DNA of 64,000 bases from a virus (Duplodnaviria > Caudoviricetes). Positions 1,744 to 44,200 of this stretch are shown here, piece after piece. A program made the position numbers and the translations under genes. Within the stretch, counting starts at the first letter, position 1, and the number at the start of each line of letters is the position of its first letter. The notes below the pieces were generated by a model that did no database searches, was not told the origin of the DNA, and saw only the letters and a list, made by a program, of their open reading frames with translations. The stretch covers positions 2,265-66,264 of the IMG/VR virus record IMGVR_UViG_3300033075_001514; one strand, given 5' to 3'.

Positions 1744-2178
1744 ATGGAAACCAAGATTTGCAGCCAGTGTAAAGTGTCGTTGGATCTCTCCTCTTTTCAC
1801 AAAAAGGGAGCCGGAACTAGGGATCGATGCAAAGCCTGCAGCAAGCTCTACCACAAAGCGCATTACGAAGCCAATAAGCAAAAATACTTCGACAACGCCC
1901 TCGCAACAAGACACCGACTCCAGGACTTTGTCGATAGCCTTAAAAGCGGCCCGTGCGTAGACTGCAAACAGAGCTTCCCACCAGTAGTAATGGATTTTGA
2001 TCACACGTCAGACAACAAAATAATGAACGTAAGCCGCCTGGTGTGTTGGGGGAGCTTGCAAAAAGTCCAAGAAGAAGTTGCCAAGTGCGAGCTTGTATGC
2101 TCCAATTGCCATAGAATCAGAACACACAATAGGCGCGGGCGTAGTCGAGCAGCAAGACGCAGGTCTTCCAAACCTTGA
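1744..2178 (+). CDS. HNH homing endonuclease
   Basis: CxxC pairs, CVDC..MDFDH..KCELVCSNCHRIRT; paralog of 27524..27937; GTAATCT 7 nt upstream. Confidence 0.8.
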   Translation: METKICSQCKVSLDLSSFHKKGAGTRDRCKACSKLYHKAHYEANKQKYFDNALATRHRLQDFVDSLKSGPCVDCKQSFPPVVMDFDHTSDNKIMNVSRLVCWGSLQKVQEEVAKCELVCSNCHRIRTHNRRGRSRAARRRSSKP

Positions 2179-6099: not shown

Positions 6100-6106
6100 G
6101 TAATCT
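6100..6106 (+). promoter_or_regulatory. late promoter motif GTAATCT
   Basis: 7 nt before ATG 6114; one of about 19 copies upstream of late genes. Confidence 0.75.
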
Positions 6107-7372: not shown

Positions 7373-7895
7373 CGCACTGCGGTTAGACCTTAAGAATTGC
7401 GCAAATTGCCGGTCCGAGTTCGAGCCCGACACAAATAAGCGGAAGCTTTGCGTAAGCTGTCGTAGCCAGCGTAGTCAGAATTACTACCAGCGCAACAAAG
7501 AGCAAATCAAAGCCAAAGTTTTGGCACGGTACTACAAAAACTACGACAAGATCCGGGCTGACCAGGCCGAATATCGCGAGAAGACCGGGTACAATTCTAA
7601 GTACTATGCCGAAAACAAAGAGCATCTTAGAAGTCAAGCGCAAGCCGCCCATCGTGCTAATCCTGGAAAGAAGTATGGACTCTCTAAAGATGAATATTGG
7701 GCTATGGTCGATCGTCAAGCGGGACTCTGTGCAATTTGCAACGTCGTCATGGAAAGAGTCTGCGTAGACCACAACCACGCCACCAAGCAAGTTCGCGGAC
7801 TTTTGTGCCATCACTGTAATGTGACACTGGGACTCATGAAGGAGGACCCAGAGCGTCTCGAACGCGCGGCGGAATACATCAGGAGCCACGTATGA
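7365..7895 (+). CDS. endonuclease VII-like HNH homing endonuclease
   Basis: CAICN..VDHNHATKQVRGLLCHHCNVTLG. Confidence 0.85.
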   Translation: MSDALRLDLKNCANCRSEFEPDTNKRKLCVSCRSQRSQNYYQRNKEQIKAKVLARYYKNYDKIRADQAEYREKTGYNSKYYAENKEHLRSQAQAAHRANPGKKYGLSKDEYWAMVDRQAGLCAICNVVMERVCVDHNHATKQVRGLLCHHCNVTLGLMKEDPERLERAAEYIRSHV

Positions 7896-10816
7896 AACTC
7901 GGCAAGTCCCAAAGAGACAAGTCGGATGTCGAGGTAGCGTCAATCGCCGTCGTCAGAGACGGGGCGCTGCTTTGGATTCGTCGTGCCGACAACGCCCTTT
8001 GGACCCTGCCAGGTGGCCATCTAAACCCGGGCGAGGAGCCCCTGGACGGGGCGCTACGCGAACTTCGTGAAGAGACCGGCCTTACCCCGCCCGAAAGCGA
8101 CTTCGAGTTCCTGGGCGACGATTTGGTGCCCGGCAAGGCCCACCTCAGGATTTACTGCTTCGTGGTCGAAGTGCCACCTGACACGAAGGTCGATTTGTCC
8201 CAGGACCCTGACCAAGAGGCCTCTGGGTACGAGTGGAAGGACGAACTGCCCGAGTCCGACCACTGCTACGTCCCCCACGCTGACAACGTCATGCTCAAGT
8301 TCTTGCTCGAAAACGACGAGCTTTCCAAGGCCGAACAAAAGGAATGGCGAGCCAAGGACGGCCTCAAAATCCCTCACCACACAACTCCGGCCAGGGCTGA
8401 GTGGGACAAGGCCTACCACAAAAAGCTCGTGGAGTTCTTCGGTGCTGGTGACTCACAGCGCTTGAAGCCCGTCAAAATCCCCATCACGCCTCAAACGAGC
8501 GGCACAAATCCGGTAGTCAGCAAGGCCAGGTTTTCGCTCTACACGCGCATGTTGGCAGGTGGCGATAGGCTCCCGCCCGCAGTCGTCCGTAGGAATGGCA
8601 TTGGCTGGCACGTAGTCGACGGCAATCACCGCCTCGAAGCGGCCCTCAAGCGCGGCCTCAAGGAGATGGACGCCTACGAACTGGTCGATCCTCCCAAGAA
8701 GACCAAGAAGTCTGAAGAGCCTCTCAACAAAGGCGAGTTCAGAGCAGCCGCCTTTAAGCATAAGGACGGAACTGTCGTTGAGACTGGTTCCCACCACAAT
8801 ATCGAGCCCTGGCTGCAGGGCGGCTCGATGAACCACCGAACTGACGGACCGTGGAATTCTTCTGACTGGGAGGCCGGTTTCGTGACACACAACGGGGCCT
8901 TCATGAACAGGGATGAGGCCGCAAAGCACGTTGGACTTCAGGCCTGGAGTCCCGTGACCGGCAAGCCGCGCAACCTGGATTCCCAAGACCCCGAGGCTGG
9001 GCTTAAGAAGGCTGAAGACGACCTCGTTGCTGCCACCACCGAAAGCCTGGATAACTCCCTCCGCAAGCCACAGTACCGCTCAAGCCCCAACCCTCTCGCA
9101 GGTCACTGCTACGTGGCCTCAGAAGCGCTTTGGCACATGATGGGTGGCCATGAATCTGGCTGGGTGCCTCAGAATGTCAAGCACGAAGGCGACCAGCACT
9201 GGTATTTGAGGCACTCCAAGACTGGGCAGATCCTCGACCCAACTGCAAGCCAGTTCAGGACTCCAGTGCCCTACCACCAAGGTCGCGGTCGTGGTTTCTT
9301 GACCAAGCAGCCCTCGAAGCGCGCACAAGAGGTCATTAATCGAGTCCAGGCCAAGCTCGGTAAGGCCGAAGACCTGACCAAAGCCGGGAACCCCGTGACC
9401 GTTTACCGCCTGCAAAACAGGCGCGGCGAGGGCCCTTACGACGCTCTCGGCGGCGAGTACATGGACACTCACTTTCCCGACGCCGACGATGTCAGTCCCG
9501 AAGACGATTTCGAAAGCCACCAACTCGACGCACTCCACCGAAGCTTTCCGGCACCGAAGTTCGCCTTCGCTCATCCTGACCACGCACAAAAATGGTTCGG
9601 TACCAAAGGGCTCTCCAAGCTGAAGGCCTTGGGTTTCGAACTCTCGCCTATTCAGGCCTCCAAGGTCGAGTACTCAAGGTCCGGCAAGCAAGTCATTTTC
9701 CACCCAGCCAACCTGACCAAAGGGTTGTTCTCGACAGCCGCCCTGACAGGTGCAATGGCTCTCGGCCAGGTCGGTGGTGCGGAGCCAGACCCGAAGCCAG
9801 CCAAGGCCCTCATCGAAGCCACGCAACGAGCAGGCATCGCTGCAGAGCCCGTGAAGTGGTCAGCCCTCGGCCTCCACCAGGCCCTGATTCCCATCGCGCA
9901 CCTCGAATCCAGCTTCGGCCAGAACATCAATCACGCTCCAAACCCCAAAGGCGATTACCACACAGCCTACGGAGCACTGGGATTCAAGCCTGTGACTGCC
10001 CACGAAGAATACCTCAGGGCACCAGTCCTTCAAAAACTCTACGGCGACATGAAGGACCCTGCGGTATTCCTCAACAAATTCAAGACCGACCCCAAGTTCT
10101 ACAACTTGCTCGCAACCAGTCATTTCATGCGCTTGCAAAAGCAGCACGGCTCACCAGAACGCGCGGCCTACGCTTGGCGATGGGGCACGGGCGCTTGCCA
10201 GGGTGCGTCAGACGAACAGGTTGCAACCGAGCCCTACGTCATGAGATACCGCAGCCTCGCAGCCAATGCGGGACTCAAGAAAATGGCCATCAAGGACATC
10301 AAGCCCGGTACGCCCATTGACGAAACGACCTACGACTACACACACCTGATTAAGTCACCAGCGTTGCGTCGGAATTACGCCATGCACGTCACCCACGACC
10401 CATCAGCAGGCCAAAAGCCTACAGACCCAAACGCCCGTGAACCGCGCTCGATTGCCCGCGTGACTATTAAGCACAAGCAATCAGGCCAACTCGTTGGGTA
10501 CGTTGACGGGTCCTGGGACCGAACTGAAGCGGGCCACAAAGCCATTTTGCCGACGTATTCAGTCCTTCGCGACAAGGCTCTGAGGGGTAAGGGTCTGGGC
10601 AAGGCCATGTACGAGGCTCTGTACGCCCATGCCAACAACCACCTCGGCATTAAACATGCAGTTGGTGAAGAACACTCGACCTCTGCATCACGAGTCCACC
10701 AGGCCCTGGCCGAGAAGCATGGCTGGGAGTACCAACCCCAATGGGGCGCAAGGGACCAGACCGTCTCGCGCGACTTCGATGGCGCCTTTGGCCCCTACGA
10801 GTACAAACTCACCTGA
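7892..10816 (+). CDS. 974-aa multi-module protein: NUDIX, ParB-like, unknown, papain-like, ART-like?, transglycosylase-like, GNAT
   Basis: GGHLNPGEEPLDGALRELREETG; VVDGNHRLEAA; GHCY..HW..DPT; LESSFG..AAYAWRWG; LRGKGLGKAMY. Confidence 0.75.
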   Translation: MKLGKSQRDKSDVEVASIAVVRDGALLWIRRADNALWTLPGGHLNPGEEPLDGALRELREETGLTPPESDFEFLGDDLVPGKAHLRIYCFVVEVPPDTKVDLSQDPDQEASGYEWKDELPESDHCYVPHADNVMLKFLLENDELSKAEQKEWRAKDGLKIPHHTTPARAEWDKAYHKKLVEFFGAGDSQRLKPVKIPITPQTSGTNPVVSKARFSLYTRMLAGGDRLPPAVVRRNGIGWHVVDGNHRLEAALKRGLKEMDAYELVDPPKKTKKSEEPLNKGEFRAAAFKHKDGTVVETGSHHNIEPWLQGGSMNHRTDGPWNSSDWEAGFVTHNGAFMNRDEAAKHVGLQAWSPVTGKPRNLDSQDPEAGLKKAEDDLVAATTESLDNSLRKPQYRSSPNPLAGHCYVASEALWHMMGGHESGWVPQNVKHEGDQHWYLRHSKTGQILDPTASQFRTPVPYHQGRGRGFLTKQPSKRAQEVINRVQAKLGKAEDLTKAGNPVTVYRLQNRRGEGPYDALGGEYMDTHFPDADDVSPEDDFESHQLDALHRSFPAPKFAFAHPDHAQKWFGTKGLSKLKALGFELSPIQASKVEYSRSGKQVIFHPANLTKGLFSTAALTGAMALGQVGGAEPDPKPAKALIEATQRAGIAAEPVKWSALGLHQALIPIAHLESSFGQNINHAPNPKGDYHTAYGALGFKPVTAHEEYLRAPVLQKLYGDMKDPAVFLNKFKTDPKFYNLLATSHFMRLQKQHGSPERAAYAWRWGTGACQGASDEQVATEPYVMRYRSLAANAGLKKMAIKDIKPGTPIDETTYDYTHLIKSPALRRNYAMHVTHDPSAGQKPTDPNAREPRSIARVTIKHKQSGQLVGYVDGSWDRTEAGHKAILPTYSVLRDKALRGKGLGKAMYEALYAHANNHLGIKHAVGEEHSTSASRVHQALAEKHGWEYQPQWGARDQTVSRDFDGAFGPYEYKLT

Positions 10817-11402: not shown

Positions 11403-11960
11403 TTACGTGAACAGCCCGTAGCCTGCGCCATCAGTGATGCCGCTGTACCCGAACAGCTTTTCAGTGGCCTCTTTGGAAAACACCAACGATGAATCCCCTT
11501 GCTGGCAGAACCAGAGGATATACAGAGCAAGCTCTTCCGTGTCAACCTGGGGGTACTTGAGGAGTTCTTCCCAGGTCTCGTCGGGGAGTTCCTTCTCACG
11601 GCGAGCACGCTCGACGGGCTCGTTGAAACCGTGCAGCATGTCGTATCCCGAGTCCAAAATCTCGAAATAGGCCAGGGGAGTCAAGCTGCGGTCCTCGTAG
11701 TCCTCGAAAATCGCCGTGGGGTGGGTCTCTCGGGGGAACTTCTTGCAGGCGTTTTTGAAGGCTGCGGCCACGTCCTTCATTGGCTTGTTACAGCCGAACA
11801 CGAAGTCTTTGGTCTTCCCGTGTCCGTCCGACGACCAGTCGCCCAGGTTGACCGTGAAGCGGTGCGGCAAGGACCCGCTCTTGGCGAATGCCCCCTTGAC
11901 GGTCTCGGTGTTGGCCTTCGTGGCTGACTCTTCAGAGGTGGGACGGGTGCGTGTTTTCAT
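11403..11960 (-). CDS. hypothetical protein
   Basis: 185-aa ORF coupled to upstream gene. Confidence 0.7.
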   Translation of the reverse strand: MKTRTRPTSEESATKANTETVKGAFAKSGSLPHRFTVNLGDWSSDGHGKTKDFVFGCNKPMKDVAAAFKNACKKFPRETHPTAIFEDYEDRSLTPLAYFEILDSGYDMLHGFNEPVERARREKELPDETWEELLKYPQVDTEELALYILWFCQQGDSSLVFSKEATEKLFGYSGITDGAGYGLFT

Positions 11961-12301
11961 TGGTTCGCTTTCTTGTACTTCTGGCCGGTGACGAATTTGG
12001 GCTCACCGAAGGTCAGGGCGATGGACTCTTGCTCGAAGCGGTGGGCGATGACTTCCAGGTCCTGCTCCATGTTGCGGGCGTTCATCGCACCGACTGGTGA
12101 AGACCCACCATGCAATGCACCAATGACGGTGAAGGACTCTTCCTGCACGTCGATGTAGACGGCCTGGCCGCAGCCCTGGAAGAAAACGGCACCGCCGTAC
12201 AGTCGTGCCACTTCCAGGACCTCTTGCTGGCAAGCTTGCCAGCGGCTGATGTCCATGGGGTTCGAACCGATGTTGCGACCGACCGAGATGATGAAGTTCA
12301 T
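11957..12301 (-). CDS. early hypothetical protein
   Basis: ATG 6 nt after TATACC -10 box. Confidence 0.7.
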   Translation of the reverse strand: MNFIISVGRNIGSNPMDISRWQACQQEVLEVARLYGGAVFFQGCGQAVYIDVQEESFTVIGALHGGSSPVGAMNARNMEQDLEVIAHRFEQESIALTFGEPKFVTGQKYKKANQ

Positions 12302-12307
12302 GGGTGG

Positions 12308-12337
12308 GGTATACCATTTAGTTGCTACGGGTGTCAA
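12308..12337 (-). promoter_or_regulatory. early promoter, conserved spacer copy 2
   Basis: TTGACA-cccgTAGCAACTAAATGG-TATACC. Confidence 0.75.
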
Positions 12338-12370
12338 GTAAACAAAGCCTCGACCTTTTGAAGGCCGCTC

Positions 12371-12730
12371 TCACATGCAAGCGCCGCACACGGGTCGCCC
12401 GTCATCGCGCTCGAACCCCGCAGGCATGTGCTTGCAGGTGCCACAGACCGGCGCGTCGTTGACGGCGTACGACTTGGCGGTGGGCTGCGAGTGCATGAAC
12501 GCGTAGGGCGAGCAGACCGACGGCGTCCAGAGCCAGTGCTTGGTGTTAATGAACCCGCCCGAACGGAGGTGCTTGGCGATTTCGTCGGCCTTGCGCTGGG
12601 CATTGGCCTTGTGGGTGTACTGAGCGGCGTGGGTCACAGCCTCAATCATGTCCTCGCAGGGCTCACGGAGATACGCCACGACCACGAACTTACCGTTCTT
12701 CATCGTCTGGACCGTCGTTGAGTAGGGCAT
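12371..12730 (-). CDS. early hypothetical protein with C-terminal CxxC..CxxC
   Basis: ATG 6 nt after TATAAG. Confidence 0.7.
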   Translation of the reverse strand: MPYSTTVQTMKNGKFVVVAYLREPCEDMIEAVTHAAQYTHKANAQRKADEIAKHLRSGGFINTKHWLWTPSVCSPYAFMHSQPTAKSYAVNDAPVCGTCKHMPAGFERDDGRPVCGACM

Positions 12731-12736
12731 GAACGA

Positions 12737-12766
12737 CTTATACCATTTAGTTGCTAGGACTGTCAA
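12737..12766 (-). promoter_or_regulatory. early promoter, conserved spacer copy 3
   Basis: TTGACA-gtccTAGCAACTAAATGG-TATAAG. Confidence 0.75.
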
Positions 12767-12968
12767 GGGGCTTCAGGCCTTTTGCTTTGGCTGAATACCA
12801 GCGATGGTAGTACTCATTCTGAAGACGTCGATGCTGCTCCTGGAGCCGAGGGTCTGCACGCCGTCGTGCCGTGAGGTAGCTCGCCCATGCGGCACGGCAC
12901 GCCGAACACCGGCATTGTAGGTTGTTGTAGCCGTTGGCCGTACCGTGTCGGGGGTCGTTCGGTTTCAT
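12747..12968 (-). CDS. small Zn-binding-like protein (HGT..GY..CRCxxCR)
   Basis: MKPNDPRHGTANGYNNLQCRCSACRAA motif. Confidence 0.6.
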   Translation of the reverse strand: MKPNDPRHGTANGYNNLQCRCSACRAAWASYLTARRRADPRLQEQHRRLQNEYYHRWYSAKAKGLKPLDSPSN

Positions 12969-12993
12969 GGGCTTTCGAACGGGGCTTGGCACC

Positions 12994-13332
12994 TTACTGG
13001 GGCGTGGGGAGATACAGCAACACGATGCTCTTGAATTCCTCATCGCACTTGTGCTTCTTGACGAGTGCCTTGATTTCTTCCAGAAGGTCCTTCTTGTCGG
13101 CCATTTCTTGCTCGTAGCGCATCGTCTGAGTGCATCGCCCCTCGACCTCGATGCGCTCAAAATTCGGCGACCACTGCTCGGCATAGCCGCAGCCAAACTT
13201 GCGGGTTTCCCAGGTCTGGCCGTTACAGTGACGATTGATTTGGCCCTTGAAGCCGACTGTGACCGAGTCCGAGACTGCATCTGCTCCACAAAACGGGCAA
13301 ACCCGGTTTTTGATGTACTTGAAGGGCTCCAT
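12994..13332 (-). CDS. early hypothetical protein, Cys-containing
   Basis: Preceded by TTGACG-N17-TATACC-N6-ATG. Confidence 0.7.
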   Translation of the reverse strand: MEPFKYIKNRVCPFCGADAVSDSVTVGFKGQINRHCNGQTWETRKFGCGYAEQWSPNFERIEVEGRCTQTMRYEQEMADKKDLLEEIKALVKKHKCDEEFKSIVLLYLPTPQ

Positions 13333-13338
13333 GGCGCA

Positions 13339-13367
13339 GGTATATCACACCGTAATCTAAACGTCAA
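13339..13367. promoter_or_regulatory. overlapping divergent early (-) and late (+) promoters
   Basis: Minus TTGACG 13362-13367 and TATACC 13339-13344; plus GTAATCT 13352-13358 lies inside the spacer. Confidence 0.7.
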
Positions 13368-15670
13368 TGGAAGCTGACGGCCTAGAACATCTGCTTGGTG
13401 TAGACGACCCGGTTGAGCGCAGGCTCGCCCTCAAGTCGCACCACGTTGAGCCCTATCACCTGAGAATCGCTCTGCAAGACGAGGATCCACAGGTCCGTGA
13501 AGCTGCAGCCAATCACCCCGAACTCACCCCCGAACTGATGCACGAACTCATCCACGGGGATGACCGATGGCTCGCTGCTCAAATCGTCCAAAGGCCTGAT
13601 ATCACTGATGAACAGCTTGAGCACGCGATGCAGCACGATGACTTGCACCATCACGTCGTGGCCCACAAGGCCCTGACAGAAGACCAGCGCAACAGGCTGG
13701 CTGACGATGCAACGGTTGCTGAAGGCCTGAAGGATGACCTGGCCAAGTCCGACCTCATCAAGAACATTGGGCATTTGTTGTACCCGCACTTCGGTGAAGC
13801 CAAGCTCCACCAACTCGGCGCGTACTTCCCAGAGAAGAACCGCCGCAAGAACGATTTCCGCACCACCAAGTCGAAGACCTCAGTGTCCCAGACCGGCGGA
13901 TATACTGACTACGGCGCCTTCAAGGACAAGGCCTTGCCTGAGAACCGCCGCAGGATGAAAATCCGTGTGAAGTGGCGCAAAGACCCACCGACCGAGGTCG
14001 ACGAGGGTGTCCGCAACCGCATGTTCGGGGATGCCGACAATAACGACGTGGGTCACCTCGCTGACCAGTTCAGGGCCGTTCGCCAGGTTGTCGGCTCTAA
14101 ATCCGACCATGCAAACGAGCAGCACGAACTCCAGCACGGAGTCTTTGGACGCTTGGCCCAGAAGTATGGCATGAAGTCCAGGGACGCCATCATCCATGAG
14201 ACCCTGGCAAGGCTCCCAGACGAGCACCGTGCTGCTCTGAAGGGCGTTTTCTCCCATGGCCCCAGGATGAGCTATCACCCTTCACAGTGGCCTGAAGAGA
14301 CCATTGCGTTCGCTCAGAACTATTTGATGGACCCGGTCTATCGACGCAAAATCCACGTTGCTCAGCGAATCGACCGCAACACCGAAGCGCAGCACGACCA
14401 GGTCAAGAAGGTCCGCAAGGCCTGGAACGAACTTCAGCGCATTGCCCAGAACCTCAAGCCAGAAGACCTGGGCTTGGTCCACAAAACCGAAGACCAAGTC
14501 CTGCTCGAAGCCGTTGAGACCCTGACCAAGGCTCGTGGGGCCGACAGCGACAGTATCGTCGACCACCTCGGCTTTGACGAGCGTCGACACGCCATCCTCG
14601 AAGCCATTGAATTCTTGACCGGTAAGCCGGTTGACCCAGACGCGTATCGAGCCAGACTCATGGACTGTGACGACGACATCGAAGCGGCCTTGTTGGCAAG
14701 CGGCCTGACCCTTGAAGACCGCTCAAAGCTCGAAGCCGTGCTGTCGCTTGGTGGTGAACTGTCCAAGGCCGAGCCCAAGCTCCCCAAGCAGGTTCTGCCA
14801 GCCAACCACTCTGCAGCCGAGATGGCCTCTGACTTGCAGTGGGCTATTGACAACAACCAAATCGAGACTGTTCACCTCGGTGGCAAGCACTCTGCTGGCA
14901 CCTTGATGGCCCGCAATGACGATGGTGATTTGTTCCTGCTCAAGCCAGGCTCTGGCAAGCAATCCCCCGCTGCAGGGGCAGCAGAAGACAAGGCCTCCCA
15001 GTCTCGTCGTGAAGCAGCATTTTCTGCCGTGGCTCGCCAGATGCATATCCCCCAGGTCCCCCAGGTCGAACTCGTCCTGGTTGACGGCAAAGAGGTCGCT
15101 GGCATTCGAATGCTGGGCCTTGATTGGACAGGCCTTGCCCGTGCGAGGGAAAAAGACTCGCAGGTTCCCCGCAGAGTGCTGAAGCAGCACCTTGACGATG
15201 GCTCGATTTTCAAGTGGGCCATCATGGACGGAATACTCGCGAACCCAGACCGTCATGGTAACAACCTCATGATTGGTCCTGAGGGTAAAGTTGCGTTGAT
15301 TGACCACGGCTCCGCTTTCGCAGGACCTTCGTTTGACCCAGGTCACGACTCGAAGTCTTTCGTTCCGTACTACCTGAGGATTTGGGGACCTGAAAAGGGT
15401 TGGTCGAAGCTCTCGCCCGAAGAGCGTCTCCGTGTCCTTCCGGTTCTTGGCGAAGAAGCGGACAACGAAATCAGAGAATGGGTTGAAAACCTCGATGTCG
15501 CTGCTCTGGCGGATACGATGTACCGCTACGGCATCGACCCTGGGCCAAGTCTCGAAAGATTCCAAGCCCTGCGGGGTTACATGGATACTACACCTGATAA
15601 GGTCTCGGAAATCATGAACAAGATGTGGATTGGATTGCTGCCGTGGAGAGGTTTCAAGCCACAGCGGTAA
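13367..15670 (+). CDS. 767-aa multi-module protein: HEAT/LRV-like repeats, unknown modules, C-terminal PI3/PI4-kinase/HipA-like kinase
   Basis: LFLLKP..REAA..LANPDRHGNNLMI..LIDHGSAF; N-terminal DEDPQVREAAANHP repeats. Confidence 0.75.
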   Translation: MEADGLEHLLGVDDPVERRLALKSHHVEPYHLRIALQDEDPQVREAAANHPELTPELMHELIHGDDRWLAAQIVQRPDITDEQLEHAMQHDDLHHHVVAHKALTEDQRNRLADDATVAEGLKDDLAKSDLIKNIGHLLYPHFGEAKLHQLGAYFPEKNRRKNDFRTTKSKTSVSQTGGYTDYGAFKDKALPENRRRMKIRVKWRKDPPTEVDEGVRNRMFGDADNNDVGHLADQFRAVRQVVGSKSDHANEQHELQHGVFGRLAQKYGMKSRDAIIHETLARLPDEHRAALKGVFSHGPRMSYHPSQWPEETIAFAQNYLMDPVYRRKIHVAQRIDRNTEAQHDQVKKVRKAWNELQRIAQNLKPEDLGLVHKTEDQVLLEAVETLTKARGADSDSIVDHLGFDERRHAILEAIEFLTGKPVDPDAYRARLMDCDDDIEAALLASGLTLEDRSKLEAVLSLGGELSKAEPKLPKQVLPANHSAAEMASDLQWAIDNNQIETVHLGGKHSAGTLMARNDDGDLFLLKPGSGKQSPAAGAAEDKASQSRREAAFSAVARQMHIPQVPQVELVLVDGKEVAGIRMLGLDWTGLARAREKDSQVPRRVLKQHLDDGSIFKWAIMDGILANPDRHGNNLMIGPEGKVALIDHGSAFAGPSFDPGHDSKSFVPYYLRIWGPEKGWSKLSPEERLRVLPVLGEEADNEIREWVENLDVAALADTMYRYGIDPGPSLERFQALRGYMDTTPDKVSEIMNKMWIGLLPWRGFKPQR

Positions 15671-19414: not shown

Positions 19415-19825
19415 GGGCTTGTTGAGGATTTCTGCGATTGTCTGGAGGTCTGCGGTCGTGACCGACTCCGCGCTGCCGTAATTCCCGAAGACCGCCCGAA
19501 TCTTCTCAAGCAGCGCAGGTCTGGTCACGTAAATCTCGACCAGGTTCTCGCGGCTCGAATAGGCACGGGCCTTCGAACCGTTGGCTTTGGCCTCGACGTA
19601 CCTCTCTGAGTCCTTATTGACGATGAAGGTGTAGGTCCTTTGCCCCTTAACCATGTTGCCAGCCCAGTCGACGTACTTGAAGGTGACCTCGACATCGAAG
19701 TACTTGGTCCCGGCCTTCACGACTTCGCCCTCCACGTAGAGGTCGTCGACTCGGTTCTCCTTGGAGATGTCGTGGCTGTCGCGGGGGATCACGAACATCT
19801 TTTGTCCAATGACGGGCTTGCTCAT
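19394..19825 (-). CDS. early hypothetical protein
   Basis: TTGACG-N17-TATAAG-N7-ATG upstream (19833-19861). Confidence 0.7.
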   Translation of the reverse strand: MSKPVIGQKMFVIPRDSHDISKENRVDDLYVEGEVVKAGTKYFDVEVTFKYVDWAGNMVKGQRTYTFIVNKDSERYVEAKANGSKARAYSSRENLVEIYVTRPALLEKIRAVFGNYGSAESVTTADLQTIAEILNKPLQSSSI

Positions 19826-19832
19826 GGGTCAC

Positions 19833-19877
19833 CTTATACACGACTAAATGCCCGCCGTCAAGCCTGCATCGTAATCT
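19833..19877. promoter_or_regulatory. back-to-back early (-) promoter and late (+) GTAATCT
   Basis: Minus -10 19833-19838 and -35 19856-19861; GTAATCT 19871-19877. Confidence 0.7.
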
Positions 19878-19896
19878 GTGATGTCGAGAGGTTACG

Positions 19897-20193
19897 ATGC
19901 AAATCACCCAGAACGAAATTGAGTTCAAGCGGAAGGTCGGCAAGTCCGGCTCCAGGGACATCTACCACGTCAAGACCCGTGGAGGTTTGCACGTCATGGC
20001 CCGTTCTGACGGTACTGTGCTTGGTGCTGGTCCCCACAGGGCTGTCGCTCGCCATCTGGCCCAGAAGTTCGAGCCTGAGGCCGAATGGACTGAACTGAGC
20101 AAGTCCGACCACGTCGACTTCGAGGTCTTCGAGCATCTCGTGCCCAAGTACGAAGACATCACCATCAAGATGCGTGCCATCCAGGAAGACTAA
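19897..20193 (+). CDS. late hypothetical protein
   Basis: GAGAGG SD, after GTAATCT. Confidence 0.7.
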   Translation: MQITQNEIEFKRKVGKSGSRDIYHVKTRGGLHVMARSDGTVLGAGPHRAVARHLAQKFEPEAEWTELSKSDHVDFEVFEHLVPKYEDITIKMRAIQED

Positions 20194-21051
20194 ATGTCAC
20201 GTCGACCAGTCAACGACCTCATTACGGAAATCCCTCCGCATCAAATCAGCTTTGACGCAGAGGCGTTCGATGATGCTGTCCGCTCCCAGGGTGTCAGGCT
20301 CGTGCATTACGCTGCGACCAGGTGCCCCGTCGGCATGACCGACATGGACGAAATCCGTCGGCCGCACCCTGACCACGAGGGCTGCACCAACGGGTTTTTG
20401 TACACCAAGACCGGCACGATTACCGCACTGTTCACAGGTAACTCGAAGCACAAGAACCCTGAGGAAATGGGGTTCTGGGACGGCTCGACCGTTCAGGTGA
20501 CCTTCCCCCGCCAATACGATGAGACCGGCGAGCCAATTTTCGTCGCGCCCTTCGACCGGTTCTACCTCGAAGAGGAAGACATCGTCGTCCCCATTTGGCA
20601 GCTATTCATGCACCACGAGTCGGGCATTGACCGCCTGAAGTACCCCGTCGCCCAAATCCAGCAACTCATTGATTCGGCTGGCTTGCGGTACACCCAGGGC
20701 TCTGACTTCAGCGTCACGTCCAGTGGTGAACTCCGTTGGACTGGCCGTCGACCCATCCCCAACCTCGACCTGGGCGGACCCGCTCCTACTCGCGGTGCTG
20801 TGTGCTCGGTACGGTATTTGTATCGACCGTATTGGTACGTCGGCCAAATCGTCCATGAACTCCGTGTGACTCAGATTTCCGATGGTCCCGACAGGTCCAT
20901 CCAGCGCATGCCTCAAGCCGTGGTTCTGCATCGTGAATACGTGGCTTTGACTCGTGAGCAAGAAGAGCCCGGCGAACCAGGCGGTGCGATTGACGCAGAC
21001 GCCATGCGCAGGGTACTCGGCCCGTCTTCTGGCGGCTTTAGCCCTCGGTAA
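20194..21051 (+). CDS. neck/head-closure protein (SPO1/Twort-type)
   Basis: FDDAVRSQGV..ATRCPV..CTNGFLY..FDRF pattern recalled from Herelleviridae neck proteins. Confidence 0.6.
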   Translation: MSRRPVNDLITEIPPHQISFDAEAFDDAVRSQGVRLVHYAATRCPVGMTDMDEIRRPHPDHEGCTNGFLYTKTGTITALFTGNSKHKNPEEMGFWDGSTVQVTFPRQYDETGEPIFVAPFDRFYLEEEDIVVPIWQLFMHHESGIDRLKYPVAQIQQLIDSAGLRYTQGSDFSVTSSGELRWTGRRPIPNLDLGGPAPTRGAVCSVRYLYRPYWYVGQIVHELRVTQISDGPDRSIQRMPQAVVLHREYVALTREQEEPGEPGGAIDADAMRRVLGPSSGGFSPR

Positions 21052-21061
21052 TCTTACAGCC

Positions 21062-22021
21062 ATGAAAAAGAGTGCGGTCGATTTCCTAACAGACGTGCTC
21101 GGTGCAGAGGGCGCGAAAGCGCTTTCCAGGACCGCGACCAAAGAGCCAGCGCTCGGCGCCTTGCTCGTACCCAGGGCTGCCCTGGCCTGGATTCACCAGA
21201 CCGACGCTTTCGAGGGTGTTGTTCCAGGAATACCGAACTCTTACCTCAAGTTCCAGAAGTCCGAGTCGGGGCTGACTGGAATCGTCACCCTCCCTGAGTT
21301 GAACTATGAATTCGCTGGCACGACACCTGAACACGTTGCGGCTGCACTTGCTGTTACAGTGGGTTCAGATTTATCCGAGATTGGTGCTATTCGTGACGTG
21401 ACCTTGTCGCGCCTCGGCAAGTCCATTGAGGTCCTGGTCAAGGCCCAGACCTTCGCTCGCACCCTCGCCAAGAAAATCCTTGACCCGGCCGTTGGCTACA
21501 ACCTCCGTGAAGAAGAACTCGAAGACGGCCTCAGGGTACATGCATACGACCGACACGGCAAGCACCTCGCTTCGGCCTGGTTCCAGAACCAAGAAAATCA
21601 GTTGACCCCGGTCAATACGGACACCAACGAAGAAGAAGAGGATGAGGGCCTCAAGCAAGCGCTCTACGACCACGCCAAGAAGTTCAGCGGCAAGAACATC
21701 AAGAAGACGGAGCTTCCTGGGGCTACCCACAAGCCGAGTCAGCAGCAGGGCCCACAAGAACCCACAGCGCCAACCAAGCAGCCGAAGATGACCAAGCCCA
21801 AGCTCCCCAAGGTTCCGGCCTTGAAGGTCGAGAAATCCGAGGCTACCAAAGAGTGCCCCATTTGCGGCGGTACCCAGTTCCAGGGCGGCAAGTTCCGTGG
21901 GTGCCTGTGCCACCGAGACCTGGCCAAGCATGTCAAAGCGACCTCGTACTCTGACGGCGTGGTACTCGAATTTAGCTCGCGTGAGGCCTTCGTGGCGTTC
22001 CGCAAGATTTTGAAGGACTGA
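21062..22021 (+). CDS. late multi-module protein (GNAT-like remnant, C-terminal CPICG..CLC Zn finger)
   Basis: GTAATCT 7 nt upstream; modules separated by LAKK, IKKT, VEKS. Confidence 0.6.
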   Translation: MKKSAVDFLTDVLGAEGAKALSRTATKEPALGALLVPRAALAWIHQTDAFEGVVPGIPNSYLKFQKSESGLTGIVTLPELNYEFAGTTPEHVAAALAVTVGSDLSEIGAIRDVTLSRLGKSIEVLVKAQTFARTLAKKILDPAVGYNLREEELEDGLRVHAYDRHGKHLASAWFQNQENQLTPVNTDTNEEEEDEGLKQALYDHAKKFSGKNIKKTELPGATHKPSQQQGPQEPTAPTKQPKMTKPKLPKVPALKVEKSEATKECPICGGTQFQGGKFRGCLCHRDLAKHVKATSYSDGVVLEFSSREAFVAFRKILKD

Positions 22022-27523: not shown

Positions 27524-27937
27524 CTACTCCTTTTTACTGCGTTGATAGGTTCGATTCGCGTGGCAGTTGGCGCACACGACTTCGCATTTTGCTACTTCAA
27601 GATCGATCAACTTTTGGCTTCCTAGCGTAGCCATCATAGACACGTTATACTTCTTGGCACCTTCCACATGGTCGAATTGCATAACCCAAGGCGGGAAGGT
27701 CTCTTGACAGTCCGCGCAAGGCCTGCTCTTCAGGCTTTTTATGTAGACGTTGAGGTCTCGGCGCTGTTTTTTGTTCCTCGACTTGTAGTAGTCTTTATTC
27801 TTGGTGTAATGGTCTTTCGACCTCGGGCGCATTTTTTGCTTATGGCACGACTTACAGTTGGAACGAAGTCGACCTGGTACTACTTGGTAGAATTCTACCT
27901 CTTCTTTTTCTTGATTGCACTCGCTACACGTTTTCAT
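27524..27937 (-). CDS. HNH homing endonuclease
   Basis: CADC..MQFDH..KCEVVCANCH; GTAATCT (27945-27951, minus) 7 nt upstream. Confidence 0.8.
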   Translation of the reverse strand: MKTCSECNQEKEEVEFYQVVPGRLRSNCKSCHKQKMRPRSKDHYTKNKDYYKSRNKKQRRDLNVYIKSLKSRPCADCQETFPPWVMQFDHVEGAKKYNVSMMATLGSQKLIDLEVAKCEVVCANCHANRTYQRSKKE

Positions 27938-28048
27938 GTAGCGGAGATTACCGTTCATTACTCGGTAATGAACGCCCCGTATCGGAGTCGAACCGATTTT
28001 TGCAAGGTCATTACTCTTGCCGTGGTAGCCGTTCCCACTAACGAGGCT

Positions 28049-32206: not shown

Positions 32207-34774
32207 ATGTCAACCCTCCAATCCGGTCGCGTGTATTTGTCCATCGCCACCGACTCCACCAGCAAAGAGCTAATTCGTGCCACGAGGGCGGACGACCCTG
32301 ACCGTGTGCGTCAGATTCACCAAGCAATTGAAACCGCGAACGATTTGTGGCGTTCATGGGCTCTTGCGAACTCAGGCGAAATCCTTTCGGCCAGTGGCTC
32401 GGAACTCAGGATTCGCATCCCAACCGAAAAACTGAACGATGTCGGGGACCTGCGTCGTCGCTACGCTACCTCGACCGACTCGACCGTCAGTATCGGCTTC
32501 GGGACCAAGCTGTCCGAGGCTGACCAGGCCTTGAAGGCTGCCCAGTCGACTGGTGGCGACCAGATTCTGATGTACAGCCCCAAAATCCTGGACCTCATTC
32601 AGGAGCAAGAAGAACCTGACAAGCCCGCACTGAAGAAGGCCGACGACATCGGCATGAACAAGCCAGCGGCCGGTGGGGGCATGACTGCTGCTCAAGAGCC
32701 CATGGCCCCCGCTGCCATCGCTACGGAAGGCGAGGCTTCGGAGCACGAAGAGAACGAAGCTCTGCGCGAGCAGATGGCGAACGGTGGCGACGTCCAGAAT
32801 CCCGCCGACGACATCCATGCGCAACTCGGCCAGATGGCTACGCAACAGGCTCAGAAGGACGACCAGGAAGCCCAGGCTCAGCAGGCCCAGCAGCAACAGG
32901 CCCAGGGCCAGGACGACATCCGTTCGCAAGTAGTGAAGATCCTGAAGGTCTTCAAGGACCGCTCGCAGGAACTGGAAGGTCTCCAGGAACAAGACCCAGA
33001 GCTTTACGAGTCCCTGACTGGCATGCTGCAAATCATGATTCAGATGTCGAAGGACTACTTCGGCGCACAGGTCAACGAGCAGGACGCACAGCAGGTCCAG
33101 AAGTCCGAAGACCTGTTCAAGGCCCTCCCCCGCAACGAGGCCGAGAATCAGGCCAACATGCAGCACGAGTCCGTTCTTCAGGACATGGTCGGCGAAAAGG
33201 GCACGACACGCGCAGGCACAGACTTGCCTGCTGAAGTCAAGGTGGGCCAGCGCACCAGCATCGGACCGATGGGGAACCTGAGGCCCGAGAAGCGGACCCA
33301 GAGTTCGCAAAACCGCACGATGACTGCCAACTATCAAAACAAATCCGGCTACGGTTTGAAGTTCGTAGAAGGTCCGAATGCCGTGGCCGGTGTCTACGAC
33401 ACTTTGGATCCTCTGGAAGCCGAAACTCACGCTCAATTTCCAATTCCTGGTTTTAGAGGGGCCAATGGGAACTGGCGCTTCGAGCACCTTCCCACTTACG
33501 GAGGTCCGCTGAACGCTCCCAATCGGCCCGTCATTTCCTCCCGCGTGGAGGCCGTTGCCGGTGACGGTAGTCGCGTCCAATTCAAGTTGACGCCGACAGG
33601 TGTCCAGGTTCACCCGGACTACGATGGGAGCCTCAATAGCCGCGCTACGCCCGAGATGGTCGAACACCTCAACCAGCACACGGCCCACCTGCGCAACAGC
33701 CTCGACCCGAACGCAAGTCAGTTCGGTACCGATGCCGTCCACCCCGCCATCGCGGCTAGCTCTGCGGCCAAAATCCCGAACGCAGCCGAGATGCGTAGCG
33801 CGATGGGTCGTTCGCCCGTCTTCAAGAAAAAGCTCGGCAAGGCCGACTTGATGCCCGGCGGCAAGGGCGACAATAAGCCCGACACCGACTTCGACCACGA
33901 AGAACTCGCTGCAGGTATCAGGGCTGAAGCCTCGGAGCACGGTCTCGACCTGGCCAGGGCCAAAGAGGTCGCCAAGGACCACCTGACCGAAGACCCGAAG
34001 TACTACACCAAGCTGAAGGTAATGGAAAAGGCTTGGCCTCGCAATGAACATGAGAACAAGGCCAATGCCGCAGCCCATCCAGTCATGGAAGACGCAATCC
34101 TGGAACAGGGTGGCGGCAAGGAAGTCCACGACCGCTATGAAGCCCCGCGCGCAATCTCCAGGGCGCTCATAACCCACAACCTGCACCGAGAAAACCGTTC
34201 TGCTGCGGCACAGGTCGGGTATGACGAAGCCTCTACCGCTGAGGAGGGCAACGCAACATACGACAACGCAGCCCTTCAGGACCCCGGCGGTCGTATTCCT
34301 CGAATTCCGTTGGAGCCCCACAACACTTGGGAACCTACGGTCGAGTACCCCGCCAAGAGCAACCCCAATTACGGGGACGGCTACAACGACCACGCCTTCT
34401 GGAACGGTGTCGACCACCTGACTACTCCGGGCCACGTCGGCAATCCGGACCCCCATTCGAACGCCGCCCAAATTCCAAACAAGGCAGACATGATGGCGGC
34501 CAAGGCTCGCTCGCCAATCATGGCCAGGGCCAAGCAGGACATGTCTAAAGCGGCCCTCGAAGCAGGCAAAACCGGTCGCCACCAGGTCAATTACCCCGTT
34601 GGCACGCAAATTGACGGCGCACCAGCAGGTGGCAAGGACGCTGGACAGCTAAAAGTCCAAGACCCGGTGACCGGCAAGACAAAATGGCGCTCGGTTAGGG
34701 CCGGAATCGTCATGGCACCCGACGGAACGCCGACTTCGAGCCGTAATCCAGGCGGTTCGGGCGGCGGCCAGTGA
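32207..34774 (+). CDS. 855-aa multi-module protein: degenerate mCpol/GGDEF-like domain, Gln-rich helical region, DUF5661-like module, repeated modules
   Basis: TVSIGFGTKLSEADQALKAA; PGGKGD..EH..A.DHL.EDPKYYTKL. Confidence 0.65.
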   Translation: MSTLQSGRVYLSIATDSTSKELIRATRADDPDRVRQIHQAIETANDLWRSWALANSGEILSASGSELRIRIPTEKLNDVGDLRRRYATSTDSTVSIGFGTKLSEADQALKAAQSTGGDQILMYSPKILDLIQEQEEPDKPALKKADDIGMNKPAAGGGMTAAQEPMAPAAIATEGEASEHEENEALREQMANGGDVQNPADDIHAQLGQMATQQAQKDDQEAQAQQAQQQQAQGQDDIRSQVVKILKVFKDRSQELEGLQEQDPELYESLTGMLQIMIQMSKDYFGAQVNEQDAQQVQKSEDLFKALPRNEAENQANMQHESVLQDMVGEKGTTRAGTDLPAEVKVGQRTSIGPMGNLRPEKRTQSSQNRTMTANYQNKSGYGLKFVEGPNAVAGVYDTLDPLEAETHAQFPIPGFRGANGNWRFEHLPTYGGPLNAPNRPVISSRVEAVAGDGSRVQFKLTPTGVQVHPDYDGSLNSRATPEMVEHLNQHTAHLRNSLDPNASQFGTDAVHPAIAASSAAKIPNAAEMRSAMGRSPVFKKKLGKADLMPGGKGDNKPDTDFDHEELAAGIRAEASEHGLDLARAKEVAKDHLTEDPKYYTKLKVMEKAWPRNEHENKANAAAHPVMEDAILEQGGGKEVHDRYEAPRAISRALITHNLHRENRSAAAQVGYDEASTAEEGNATYDNAALQDPGGRIPRIPLEPHNTWEPTVEYPAKSNPNYGDGYNDHAFWNGVDHLTTPGHVGNPDPHSNAAQIPNKADMMAAKARSPIMARAKQDMSKAALEAGKTGRHQVNYPVGTQIDGAPAGGKDAGQLKVQDPVTGKTKWRSVRAGIVMAPDGTPTSSRNPGGSGGGQ

Positions 34775-41226: not shown

Positions 41227-44200
41227 ATGGCAATTCCAGGTCACCTGCGCAACCACCCCCTATTTTCCGGCGGCCGGTTTGGTCTCATGAGCGGCGAAAG
41301 CCCCAGGTTTCCTGCTACCCAAAAGCCAACCCACGAGAACCTGGTCAATCATCTGAGGAATCAAGGGATTGGGTTCGAAGAGACCCACGGTCGCTACGAC
41401 GACCCAGAACGCTCAGTCATTATTCACTCGCCTACCCGCGAGATGATGGCTGACCTCGGCAAGCACTTCGGCCAAGAGTCCGTGGTGTTCTCTGACAAGG
41501 GCAAGCACGAATTGCTCTACACCAACGGCGAGCACGAAGGCAAGTCGCGCCTGACGAAGCCTGGCTCTGAACCCATCGATTGGTTCCACGAAGCTCCGTC
41601 GAATTACTACACGCACCTGCCCAACCACGGTTATTTCGGAATCAACTTCGACTTCGATTCGGACCCCCAGCACCACGGCCCGGTCCAAGCCGCTCCTTCA
41701 GCGCCTGCGCCGATGACGAAGCACGACTTCAAGGAAGCGGCGTTCTTGCACTCTCCTACGGGTCAGGTTGTCGCGACGGGACACCGCCACGACCTTGAGC
41801 ACCCTTCGATGGACCTCAAGGCCTTCAATCGCGGCGAGTACGTCGATGGTTTTGTTGACTCGAAGGGCAAGTTCTTTGACCGCAACCAGGCTCTCGCAGT
41901 CATTCGGCGCGAAGGTATGCCCGACCCCGTGTTGCCAAGCGGCGAGGTCGAGGTCCATTCAGACGACCTGGACATGCCATATAAGGTACACGGTGGACTC
42001 AACAAGGCTGGTCAGCCCTCGGATATCCTCCAGGTGCTGGCTGATGAACTTGAGATGCAGGGCTGGTCACCGAACGAAATTCCCCAGGCTACGGGGGTCG
42101 GTGCCATTGATTCGGATCGGTCCAAGTTGGCCGGTCACCGTGGCGCCGATTGGGCTACGGCGATTTCTCAGAGAACGAATCGCCACGCCGACAACCTTGA
42201 GGCCTTGGCCCAAGAGCGTGGACATACACACGGCAACACTTCACTGGAACGTGACCAACTTGGCAGAACGGCCGAACAACAAGCAATGCACGACATCGCA
42301 TTGGCCGACAAGAGCCGTGACTCCGGCGATGCAAATTACGTTGGGGACAATCCGTTCCACCACAACAATCTTCCCGGCGTGTTGGACGCCGACAACTTCG
42401 GCAAGGACTTGACCGACAGGTCAGGTAAAGTCCCCGTCCCCTTTTCTGCAAGTCCTACCGAAGCTGCTACGTCTGTCGCTGGCAACATGCCGACGGGTAA
42501 CGAGATGCGCGCCGCATGGAAGTCTCACCCCCATGCGTACGAATGGCACGACGGCCACTCAGACCACCACCGACTCGCACCCAACCTGGAAGCGATCCAG
42601 AAGTCCTTCGGGCTCTGGAAGGCAGATCTACCCAAGAACGACCAGGCCGCTGGCGTTGGCGCACCGACGTATGCCAAGTTCGCTGGTCCATACGGTGAAG
42701 TCCGTGGTCGTGCTACGCCCAGTGACCTGACGCACTATAACTACCACGGGAAGCTCCCCGAAATCGAAGCTCTCGTCAAAAAGCACGGATTCAAGACCTA
42801 CTTCGCTGGCGGTAAATACGGCAAGCCCGACCTCCAGGCCAAGAACTACAACAACGGCCACTTGATGATTTACGACCCGACTCCTTCGTCGGGCGGCGAC
42901 TTCAAGGACCACCAGTACACGAACGCGTGGCGTCAAATCCACGAGCTTTCGCACGCACTCACTTACCCCGAACTGAACTCCATTTACGGCGAAGGTCGTC
43001 GAATCGGCAAGCTCGGTACTCACCGTACCCCGAACGAAGCCATGCGCGCCGTACATTGGGAATGGCTCGCAGCCCACAAGCAGCGCGACTTGAGCGCCAA
43101 GCTCGGCATTCACGTGCCCGACGAGGTGTTCCACAAGGAACTCAACACCGTCATGCACGACGCTGTACGCCGTGCTGTGACTGGCCAGTTCACTGAGCCT
43201 GCGGGCGAGGGTTTTGTACCCCACAGCCACAAGGTCCCCCTCCACATCGCCCTCGACACCGTTCGCAACGAAGCACAGGCCATGGGCATCCAGCACCCCC
43301 ACGGGCTCGCGAAGCGTCCGATGATGAAGGCCTGGCCTGCAGGCGCTACTGAGACCCAGGATTCGCCTGAGAACCAAGCCAACGCAGCAGCGCACAAAAC
43401 CATCACTGAACGCGCCGAGGTATTTGGTGACAAGCAGGAAGAGCAGGGCTTGCCTCGTACGGGCGTTCACCCGAATGCGCTTTCGAGTATTCGAAGTAGA
43501 GCCCAAATTGGCGGCTCGCAAGACCAGCAACTTGGGCGTATTAGTACGGCTCGCCACACGAACGACATTGCAAGGTTCAATGCTGGCTGGCCTGGTTCAG
43601 ACCCAGTGATGCCAGCAAAGGCCTACATCGACGGTGGCGGCTATGACGAAGCGCCGTACGACAGCAAGGGCGACTTGAACGACCAAAACTACTGGGCCGG
43701 AATCGGTCGTGCCGCTGGTATTCAGAAGTCTGACCCCGGCGCTCCGCTTCACGCTGATGCCAATACATTCCTTGCCGCTCTGAAGGGTCTACCCAAGGGC
43801 TCGCCTGAACGCGGTAAATTCGTCACGCAGCACATGAACCACGGTCCGTTCTTGGCCGCTCTCCAGGCTCATCCTCAAGGCGTCCAAATCCACAAAATGC
43901 TCACCGGGTTCTTGAACTCGAAGGCAAACGCCGGTCCTGGTCTGCCAATGAAGACCGTCGCAAAATCAGAGCCTCACGTAATCTTGTCGAAGCAAGGGAA
44001 CACCATGTCCGAAAAGACCTACACACCACAAGAAGCCGTCGAAGTACTCAAGAAGGCGGCCTCTGACAAAATCAAGGCCATGGAGTATCGGCTTCAGGAC
44101 CTCCGCAAGCGTGAGCTTTCGAAGGGGTTGATTCCAACTCACAAGCACAACACCGGCTCGTCGGCCAGTGCTGCGATGGAAGACGTCCCGCCCTCGAAGC

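Follow-up and report, generated by a model that had tools for sequence, protein, structure and literature searches.

In phage T4, the motif recognized by the head protease ends in Glu. Prohead proteases of the phiKZ type cut ejection proteins, portal and capsid at one common short motif, and the head-protease motif of SPN3US, the use of which was measured by mass spectrometry, also ends in Glu (PMC10052503). Polyvalent proteins of phages and conjugative elements, as described by Iyer et al. 2017 (PMC5512222), carry 2 to 15 unrelated effector domains per chain, are encoded in a late or virion gene setting, vary greatly by mosaicism, and have been proposed to accompany the DNA. The protein compared here with both systems is a 974-amino acid (aa) chain of seven modules, encoded at 7892..10816 (+ strand, stop codon included) of a 64-kb window, i.e., the whole stretch of 64,000 nucleotides that was analyzed, which comes from a single 66,264-bp viral contig of 57.7% G+C (IMG/VR record IMGVR_UViG_3300033075_001514, positions 2,265 to 66,264). 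From its sequence, this chain can be classed as a polyvalent protein sensu Iyer et al. 2017. Its modules are joined by linkers with a lysine motif that is also found in head proteins of the related Myxococcus phage Mx1, and we put at roughly 60% the probability that the chain is a precursor which would be cut by the head protease in the prohead, its pieces being ejected with the DNA.

Seven modules shuffled among relatives

In order, the chain carries a NUDIX hydrolase, a ParB/Srx-like domain, a module with no assigned function, a Cys-His-Asp module, a T4 Y00F-type module, a lytic-transglycosylase-fold domain preceded by a hydrophobic segment, and a GNAT acetyltransferase. A search of 5.8 billion proteins returned 78 homologues of 535-1700 aa, while a whole-protein scan of viral contigs found no relative, and loci were taken instead from contigs encoding homologues, that of P0042, which had no DNA, being left out. 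When the segments were compared individually with the 78 homologues by BLAST, each was found to change places on its own, the homologues having dozens of different orders and contents; the division into seven modules, made in a first-pass annotation from the letters alone, is thus borne out independently by this shuffling. The relatives P0003 (95% identical) and P0004 (79%) differ by whole modules that are inserted or replaced, with ends lying exactly at the linker motif. In P0003 (L003 2600-3043, aa 271-418), an extra module of ~136 aa with its own C...HWW...FDPKG pattern stands between the ParB module and module 3, and is possibly a second module of the Cys-His-Asp type. Other family members add ART-PolyVal (PF18760; ART, ADP-ribosyltransferase), PBECR5 (PF18814), PI3/4-kinase, mCpol, DUF5661, or Phage_Mu_F (PF04233) with an intein.

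The sole related cultured phage is Mx1 (169.6 kb, contractile tail), in which the gene is syntenic with the locus of WNM70333.1 (OR576727.2), a 1479-aa protein annotated only as "NUDIX hydrolase." This homologue, at an orthologous position, covers 70% of the query in five pieces and has five modules in common with it (Cys, SLT-like, ParB, GNAT, and NUDIX; 31-67% identity), together with the same linker motif. It differs by its permuted order, by an extra ART-PolyVal and two other modules, and by having neither module 3 nor module 5. The capsid protein of Mx1 has >1,500 relatives at E <= 0.001, and the best 120, many of them on contigs of 160-180 kb, are 58-82% identical; relatives so numerous indicate a large, mostly uncultured phage clade.

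With regard to the polyvalent class, for which at least two unrelated effector-type domains in one chain of a phage or conjugative element are expected, seven modules are present here and five of them have a family or a fold. The signature domains of the class comprise ART-PolyVal, PBECR, MuF, MPTase, DdrB-ParB and LPDs; homologues sharing these modules link the chain to ART-PolyVal, PBECR5 and Phage_Mu_F, and the gene lies in a late or virion setting, between the thymidylate synthase/head block and the tail sheath. GNAT, ParB-like, ART, kinase, peptidoglycan-targeting and MuF domains all belong to the published repertoire (PMC5512222). Unlike the signature members, the 974-aa protein itself has no Pfam "PolyVal" domain; NUDIX, which is the commonest module in this family, is mentioned once in the available text of PMC5512222, and neither the regular lysine linker nor a hydrophobic segment before the transglycosylase was found in that text. 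The first-pass annotation had rightly described the multi-module character but did not name the known class. The class is already described and the Mx1 homologue already deposited; what comes in addition to the class paper, as far as the text at hand extends, is the lysine linker common to head proteins, the exchange of cassettes exactly at the linkers, and the hydrophobic stretch that leads the transglycosylase piece.

Lysine linkers and the proposed fate of the chain

All six junctions of the chain read hydrophobic-x-Lys-small, namely LSKA, TKKS plus LNKG, LKKA, LGKA plus LTKA, LTKG, and LKKM. Across the family the signature is hydrophobic-x-Lys-(Ala/Ser/Gly/Met), which frequently stands twice in a linker and frequently has Glu after it. 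In its loose form, [LIVMF]xK[ASGMV], it is present in 125 of the 139 distinct family linkers, at a density 10.7x that of module interiors, and the strict form, [LIVMF]xK[AS][ED], occurs 58 times in 4,501 linker residues vs. once in 37,065 interior residues. Of 87 multi-domain proteins with module 5 from an unbiased library search, 67 have the linker motif in front of this module. Glu was considered as the cut residue, with cleavage at the end of K-[AS]-E as in T4 and phiKZ, and was rejected: many linkers have no Glu (LTKG, LKKM, LKKGLP, LQKMAIKD). Since Lys is the constant residue, the cut is probably placed after it.

The same motif can be found in head proteins of Mx1. In a survey covering the proteins of the first 42.7 kb of that genome, a 290-aa scaffold-like protein has four copies of the strict motif, the polyvalent protein and several unnamed proteins encoded before the sheath have one to three, and the motif lies near both ends of the portal. 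No strict copy is present in the helicase, sigma factor, phosphoesterase, ThyA, deoxynucleoside monophosphate kinase or sheath, and most other surveyed proteins have no motif. The capsid N-terminus consists of a variable stretch of ~9-17 aa followed by L-x-K-[AGT]-[LMFIV]-E-A-G, which is kept in all 45 relatives read. After its first ~240 residues, the 1239-aa protein annotated as the putative prohead protease of Mx1 (L002 13002-16721) repeats the N-terminal motif of the capsid protein (19703-21103), K-AMEAGNFNA.PSTL..GSA.Q, in the form FAK-AMEAGNFNA; the remainder of this protein has no Pfam match.

One motif common to capsid, portal, scaffold-type and cargo proteins is the arrangement described for T4 (Alt, IPI-III) and for phiKZ/SPN3US, where the cargo leaves with the DNA (PMC10052503), and by analogy the head protease probably cuts the polyprotein into seven pieces. 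The two situations differ in that cleavage in T4 and phiKZ/SPN3US mostly removes an N-terminal propeptide, whereas the sites here would split a single chain into numerous enzymes, and in that their motif ends in Glu, whereas here, where processing is deduced from sequence, Lys is invariant. We infer the following course. The polyprotein gene would be expressed late, together with the upstream structural genes, and the precursor would enter the prohead, where the head-maturation protease would cut the six linker regions, probably after K146, K273/K280, K373, K491/K497, K610, and K797. Seven fragments of ~10-20 kDa would result and, when a cell is infected, would go out of the capsid together with the DNA. 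The transglycosylase fragment, its freed Gly and hydrophobic N-terminus inserted in a membrane, may then act in the periplasm and, like T7 gp16, open peptidoglycan there, while the other six fragments would work in the cytoplasm: the NUDIX piece on substrates of the ADP-ribose, dinucleotide or cap type, the ParB/Srx piece on DNA or nucleoside triphosphates, and the transglutaminase-fold Cys enzyme and the GNAT on host proteins or small molecules. A transglycosylase acting in the periplasm and its hydrophobic segment, standing beside cytoplasmic enzymes, make sense only if the pieces are separated. The remark of the first-pass annotation that such a fusion would be cut and ejected from the head seems to be backed, indirectly, by the linker motif common to head proteins. 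More tentatively, and at somewhat less than even odds, a single lysine-specific head-protease code (hydrophobic-x-Lys, cut before a small residue) could serve in the maturation of capsid, scaffold and portal as well as in cutting several giant late proteins into ~20 swappable single-enzyme cargo pieces, and could free a Gly-led hydrophobic membrane anchor for the transglycosylase, the linkers doubling as breakpoints for cassette exchange between phages.

Several points weigh against processing by the head protease. No capsid-targeting signal was identified in the 974-aa protein. Module interiors are not free of the loose motif (0.32 per 100 aa), which the chain itself has four times off-junction (aa 3, 209, 819, and 902), and the homologues are interrelated, so that the counts over their linkers are not fully independent. 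The comparison with head proteins rests on Mx1 and on metagenomic relatives, since the capsid, scaffold and protease genes lie outside this window and its 66-kb contig, and in Mx1 two motif matches are also present in the large terminase. The "prohead protease" of Mx1 is identified by its annotation and by a weak PHROG match (1e-4), and neither Pfam nor the PDB sequences yielded a relative for its N-terminal region that would set the protease family and the expected P1 residue. The genome announcement of Mx1 has no virion proteomics (PMC10720576).

The short Lys/Ala/Ser-rich motif could also mark mere flexible linkers. The chain would then be one uncut multi-domain effector, packaged or not, with linkers acting as flexible soluble spacers conserved by descent, as would befit a motif so short that it recurs within modules. 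There are precedents, given that the N4 virion RNA polymerase (packaged uncut), ArdC and TraC1 are transferred unprocessed (PMC5512222). We nevertheless consider this unlikely. A flexible spacer needs no invariant hydrophobic-x-Lys-small signature over 139 distinct linkers, and a spacer role leaves the occurrence of this signature in the scaffold-like protein, at the portal ends and at the capsid N-terminus unexplained; in addition, with cytoplasmic enzymes on either side in an uncut chain, a hydrophobic segment and a periplasmic transglycosylase would be topologically awkward.

Alternatively, the polyprotein might process itself in the infected cell, the linkers being cut by the Cys-His-Asp module or by another phage cysteine peptidase and the pieces acting late, unpackaged. 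Peptidase domains have been proposed to release neighboring effector domains (PMC5512222), the invariant Cys, His and Asp of this module probably sit on a fold common to the proteases LapG and PeiW, and one relative has a Peptidase_C39 gene directly upstream. Yet ~30 of the 78 relatives keep the linkers without having the Cys module, this module also occurs as hundreds of standalone proteins, most of ~105-150 aa, and the gene is located among structural late genes, with a motif shared by capsid, scaffold and portal, the usual substrates of a head protease; self-processing thus appears improbable. That the linkers are mainly recombination joints, in which microhomology between linker codons lets cassettes swap between genes and phages with cleavage as a secondary matter, would fit the massive shuffling of module order, the swaps bounded exactly by linkers, and the short DNA repeats of 12-30 nt joining junctions 8319/9354, 8723/9713, and 9372/9711, but it is highly improbable as the main role, given that these repeats are 70-76% identical (one exact 12-mer excepted), no more than the peptide motif implies, and that the motif in single-module head proteins is left unexplained; as an additional role it is compatible with cleavage by the head protease and does not exclude it.

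The individual modules

Every motif quoted in the first-pass annotation was found at its place in the protein, and five of its seven module names hold, that of the Cys-His-Asp module at the level of the fold; the speculative ADP-ribosyltransferase call found no support. Module 6 (aa 611-797, 9722..10282, + strand) combines a hydrophobic segment, a spacer and a domain with a lytic-transglycosylase fold, and ends at LKK797/M, the slash standing here and below for the end of a module. The Gly/Ala/Leu-rich segment (GLFSTAALTGAMALGQVGG...; aa 611-633, 9722..9790, + strand) directly follows the LTK/G linker and is the most hydrophobic stretch of the protein, with a Kyte-Doolittle 19-aa maximum of 1.16 at aa 612. 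Such a segment is present upstream in 57 of 60 distinct SLT modules, and in 50 it directly follows hydrophobic-x-K-[GSANT], usually K-G. The AlphaFold (AF2) model of module 6 is a helical domain with a core pLDDT of ~90, for which all top Foldseek matches are lytic transglycosylases (prob 1.00). By exhaustive structural alignment (VIA), the best match is Slt from Pseudomonas aeruginosa (residues 478-620; Z 11.2, root-mean-square deviation 2.5 A, 119 aligned), followed among others by Slt70 (Z 10.6), phiKZ gp144 (8.6) and the T7 core protein gp16 (8.3), as well as MltC and MltE, and the 19 best structural rows are all lytic transglycosylases. Besides LESSFG at aa 671 and YGALG at aa 693, the module has AYAWRWG at aa 759; E672-S673 (E62-S63 in alignment A1) and AYAWRxG are invariant in 10 sequences of the module. 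Going by the aligned ranges, E672-S673 would fall where Slt has E503, which the inactive mutant E503Q (PDB entry title) marks as essential for activity. With SLT (GH23) and T7 gp16, module 6 has in common the fold (Z 8.3-11.2), an invariant Glu-Ser after the first core helix and the AYxxxxG motif; it differs by forming a distinct sequence family, preceded by the hydrophobic Gly/Ala-rich segment, for which transglycosylase activity is predicted from the fold. None of 10 members matched a Pfam SLT family at E up to 10, and a profile search of PDB sequences gave no match. The lytic-transglycosylase-like call is hence upheld at the level of the modeled fold.

Module 4 (aa 374-497, 9011..9382, + strand) ends at the double linker LGK491/A ... 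LTK497/A and belongs to a YunG-type family. It matches phrog_12251 at 2.5e-26 and, weakly, Pfam YunG (PF24585; 20 bits, below the cutoff of 27), and 552 proteins match it in a search limited to 30-534 aa, most of those listed being ~105-150 aa long and 50-70% identical. GHCY is found at aa 404, QHWY at aa 435 and ILDPT at aa 447; over 58 sequences GHCY..E, HW, D.T..Q and FLT are invariant, including C406, H436 and D449 in that order. With the AF2 model (pLDDT 93.5), VIA ranks LapG first (Z 5.8); arylamine N-acetyltransferases (NAT) reach Z 5.0, further rows comprise the pseudomurein endoisopeptidase PeiW, transglutaminases, protein-glutaminases, SseI, SpvD and OspI, and nearly all top rows are Cys-His-Asp enzymes of the transglutaminase/papain fold. 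Foldseek with the same model found no PDB match at E <= 0.001 (E 0.18 or worse) and, in BFVD, one viral protein at 1e-5, and a profile search of PDB sequences returned nothing. The papain/transglutaminase-like call thus stands for the fold, on modest Z values and without a significant Foldseek match in the PDB. Because these Z values are modest, module 4 is graded as a probable, not a proven, Cys-His-Asp enzyme of the transglutaminase/papain fold. It has the Cys-His-Asp order and, probably, the fold type of LapG, NAT and protein-glutaminase but is much smaller (~115 aa), and YunG itself has no known function.

Module 5 (aa 498-610, 9383..9721, + strand), with VYRLQ at aa 504 and QVIF at aa 600, ends at LTK610/G and is of the Phage_T4_Y00F type (PF26820). 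Among the 78 relatives, precomputed PF26820 assignments are present in exactly seven, the same seven that carry module 5; the module also matches phrog_1106 at 1.6e-8, and its Atlas structure match to Y00F has a TM of 0.74. A profile search returned 971 representative proteins, either standalone (~110-150 aa) or embedded in larger multi-domain proteins. The first-pass annotation had speculated on an ADP-ribosyltransferase. Pfam scans of 43 members found no ART family and no other match, a profile search of PDB sequences found none, and alignment with the ART-PolyVal segment of Mx1 (hhalign, single-sequence template) had a probability of 0.1%, so that the ART identity found no support in these sequence-level tests. 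The single hint toward ART is an Atlas structural row to the RES NAD+ phosphorylase (TM 0.47).

The remaining modules are of more familiar kinds, with the exception of module 3. Module 1 (aa 1-146, 7892..8329, + strand; ending at the linker LSK146/A) is a NUDIX hydrolase, as had been called, with Pfam PF00293 at E 6.8e-17 (62.2 bits vs. a cutoff of 21.1) and a full Nudix box at aa 42-64 (Gx5Ex7REUxEExGU, by regular expression). Its PDB sequence matches are led by ADP-ribose pyrophosphatase (3.3e-7) and include NudJ, RppH and Ap4A hydrolases; the nearest solved relatives being this diverse, no substrate can be assigned. Module 2 (aa 147-280, 8330..8731, + strand; ending at the double linker TKK273/S ... 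LNK280/G) corresponds to a ParB/Srx-like N-terminal domain with an invariant DGN-x-R, here DGNHR at aa 243. An eight-sequence profile (A2) matches the ParB structures 7bnr/7bnk at E 3.4e-5, and in the alignment DGNHR falls on the GERR box. R247 does not vary, whereas His or Ala stands in the place of the first Arg of GERR. Together with the Pfam ParB_N match of the homologue P0033 (1.3e-5), this profile match confirms the ParB/Srx assignment; the match to phrog_1033 is weak. Module 7 (aa 798-974, 10283..10813, + strand) begins with MAIKD, a start common to most GNAT modules of the family. The GNAT call is sustained by Pfam PF00583 (2.1e-5, 25.2 bits vs. a cutoff of 20.7); RGKGLG at aa 898 fits the acetyl-CoA motif A (Q/R-x-x-G-x-G/A), and there is a PDB sequence match to phosphinothricin acetyltransferase (0.0037).

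Module 3 (aa 281-373, 8732..9010, + strand; ending at LKK373/A) is characterized by GEFR...GF.T..G.F..R.EA, with GFVTHNGAFMNRDEA at aa 329, and has no assigned function. It travels as a unit in at least eight relatives, and a diverged copy (34% identity, E 4e-7) is present at aa 163-223 of a 1305-aa protein encoded in the same window. It stays without a family, as in the first-pass annotation; the sole lead, weak and to be taken as a lead only, comes from Atlas, where language model and structure point to PF26092 T4_Y16D (score 0.82/TM 0.59).

Gene neighborhood and significance

The open reading frame (ORF) of the 974-aa protein at 7892-10816 is real: it starts with ATG and is open over 974 codons. 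The ATG has AGGAG 6 nt upstream and shares bases with the stop codon of the endonuclease VII ORF in front of it. Overlapping ORFs in other frames or on the opposite strand (e.g., 8453-8986 minus and 9592-10320 plus) were judged to be by-products of G+C-rich coding sequence; homologues cover the long frame from end to end. By its gene content and order the source contig can be taken as DNA of an Mx1-like myophage. As in Mx1, the order runs from thymidylate synthase through small proteins of 135 and 280 aa to the multi-module gene, a PI3/4-kinase-like protein, a run of unnamed genes, and the tail sheath and tube; in Mx1 this block is preceded by terminase, portal, the 1239-aa putative prohead protease, the scaffold-like protein and the capsid protein. 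In all loci of relatives that were retrieved, the gene again has the 135-aa and 280-aa proteins upstream of it and the PI3/4-kinase protein downstream. On this evidence the gene sits in a late, structural-gene block. The heptamer GTAATCT, which at 6100 heads the gene run upstream of the polyprotein, has 20 sites in the window vs. 2.9 expected, a number reached by 0 of 100 shuffles. Most of these sites (e.g., 6100, 13352, 32193, 41213, and 45816) are on the + strand and shortly precede the start of a late gene, so that GTAATCT may be a late-promoter element.

The ORF directly upstream of the polyprotein (7383-7895, + strand) is of the endonuclease VII/HNH type (Pfam PF02945, 2.6e-22). As Mx1 has no gene at this spot, it looks like an insertion of the homing-endonuclease type in the late operon. 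Between the polyprotein and the kinase gene lies a cluster of small opposite-strand genes (11403-13332, - strand); the two genes are adjacent in Mx1, and other relatives have similar small minus-strand inserts. The kinase gene (13367-15670, + strand) encodes a 767-aa protein with a PI3/PI4-kinase-like C-terminal domain (Pfam 1.7e-6) and two strict linker motifs. It is encoded separately in this window, whereas several relatives have it as part of the polyvalent chain itself; gene borders in the block are therefore fluid. Further along, an 855-aa protein (32207-34774, + strand) with an N-terminal mCpol (8e-7), DUF5661 (6.4e-8) and three strict linker motifs is, by its sequence, another polyvalent-type chain, like the relatives P0068 and P0072. 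The 1305-aa protein that holds the module 3 copy (41227-45144, + strand) has four strict linker motifs and a weak N-terminal match resembling S-adenosylmethionine lyase (0.004). Two 144-aa ORFs, at 1744-2178 (+ strand) and 27524-27958 (- strand), have 40-43% identity to one stretch of Mx1 (48.2-48.6 kb, among tRNA genes) and look like a small repeated gene of mobile type.

The window thus adds a well-resolved example of a described class rather than a first discovery. Mx1 and Myxococcus xanthus being cultivable, the idea of head-protease processing at the linkers is directly testable. If the linkers are true head-protease sites, the injected enzyme arsenal of these phages, with its cargo pieces and their exact ends, would become readable from sequence, and hundreds of metagenomic polyproteins could be catalogued as sources of candidate early effectors and anti-defence enzymes, among them two widespread families with no assigned function, the YunG-like and the T4 Y00F-like proteins (971 representative proteins for the latter).

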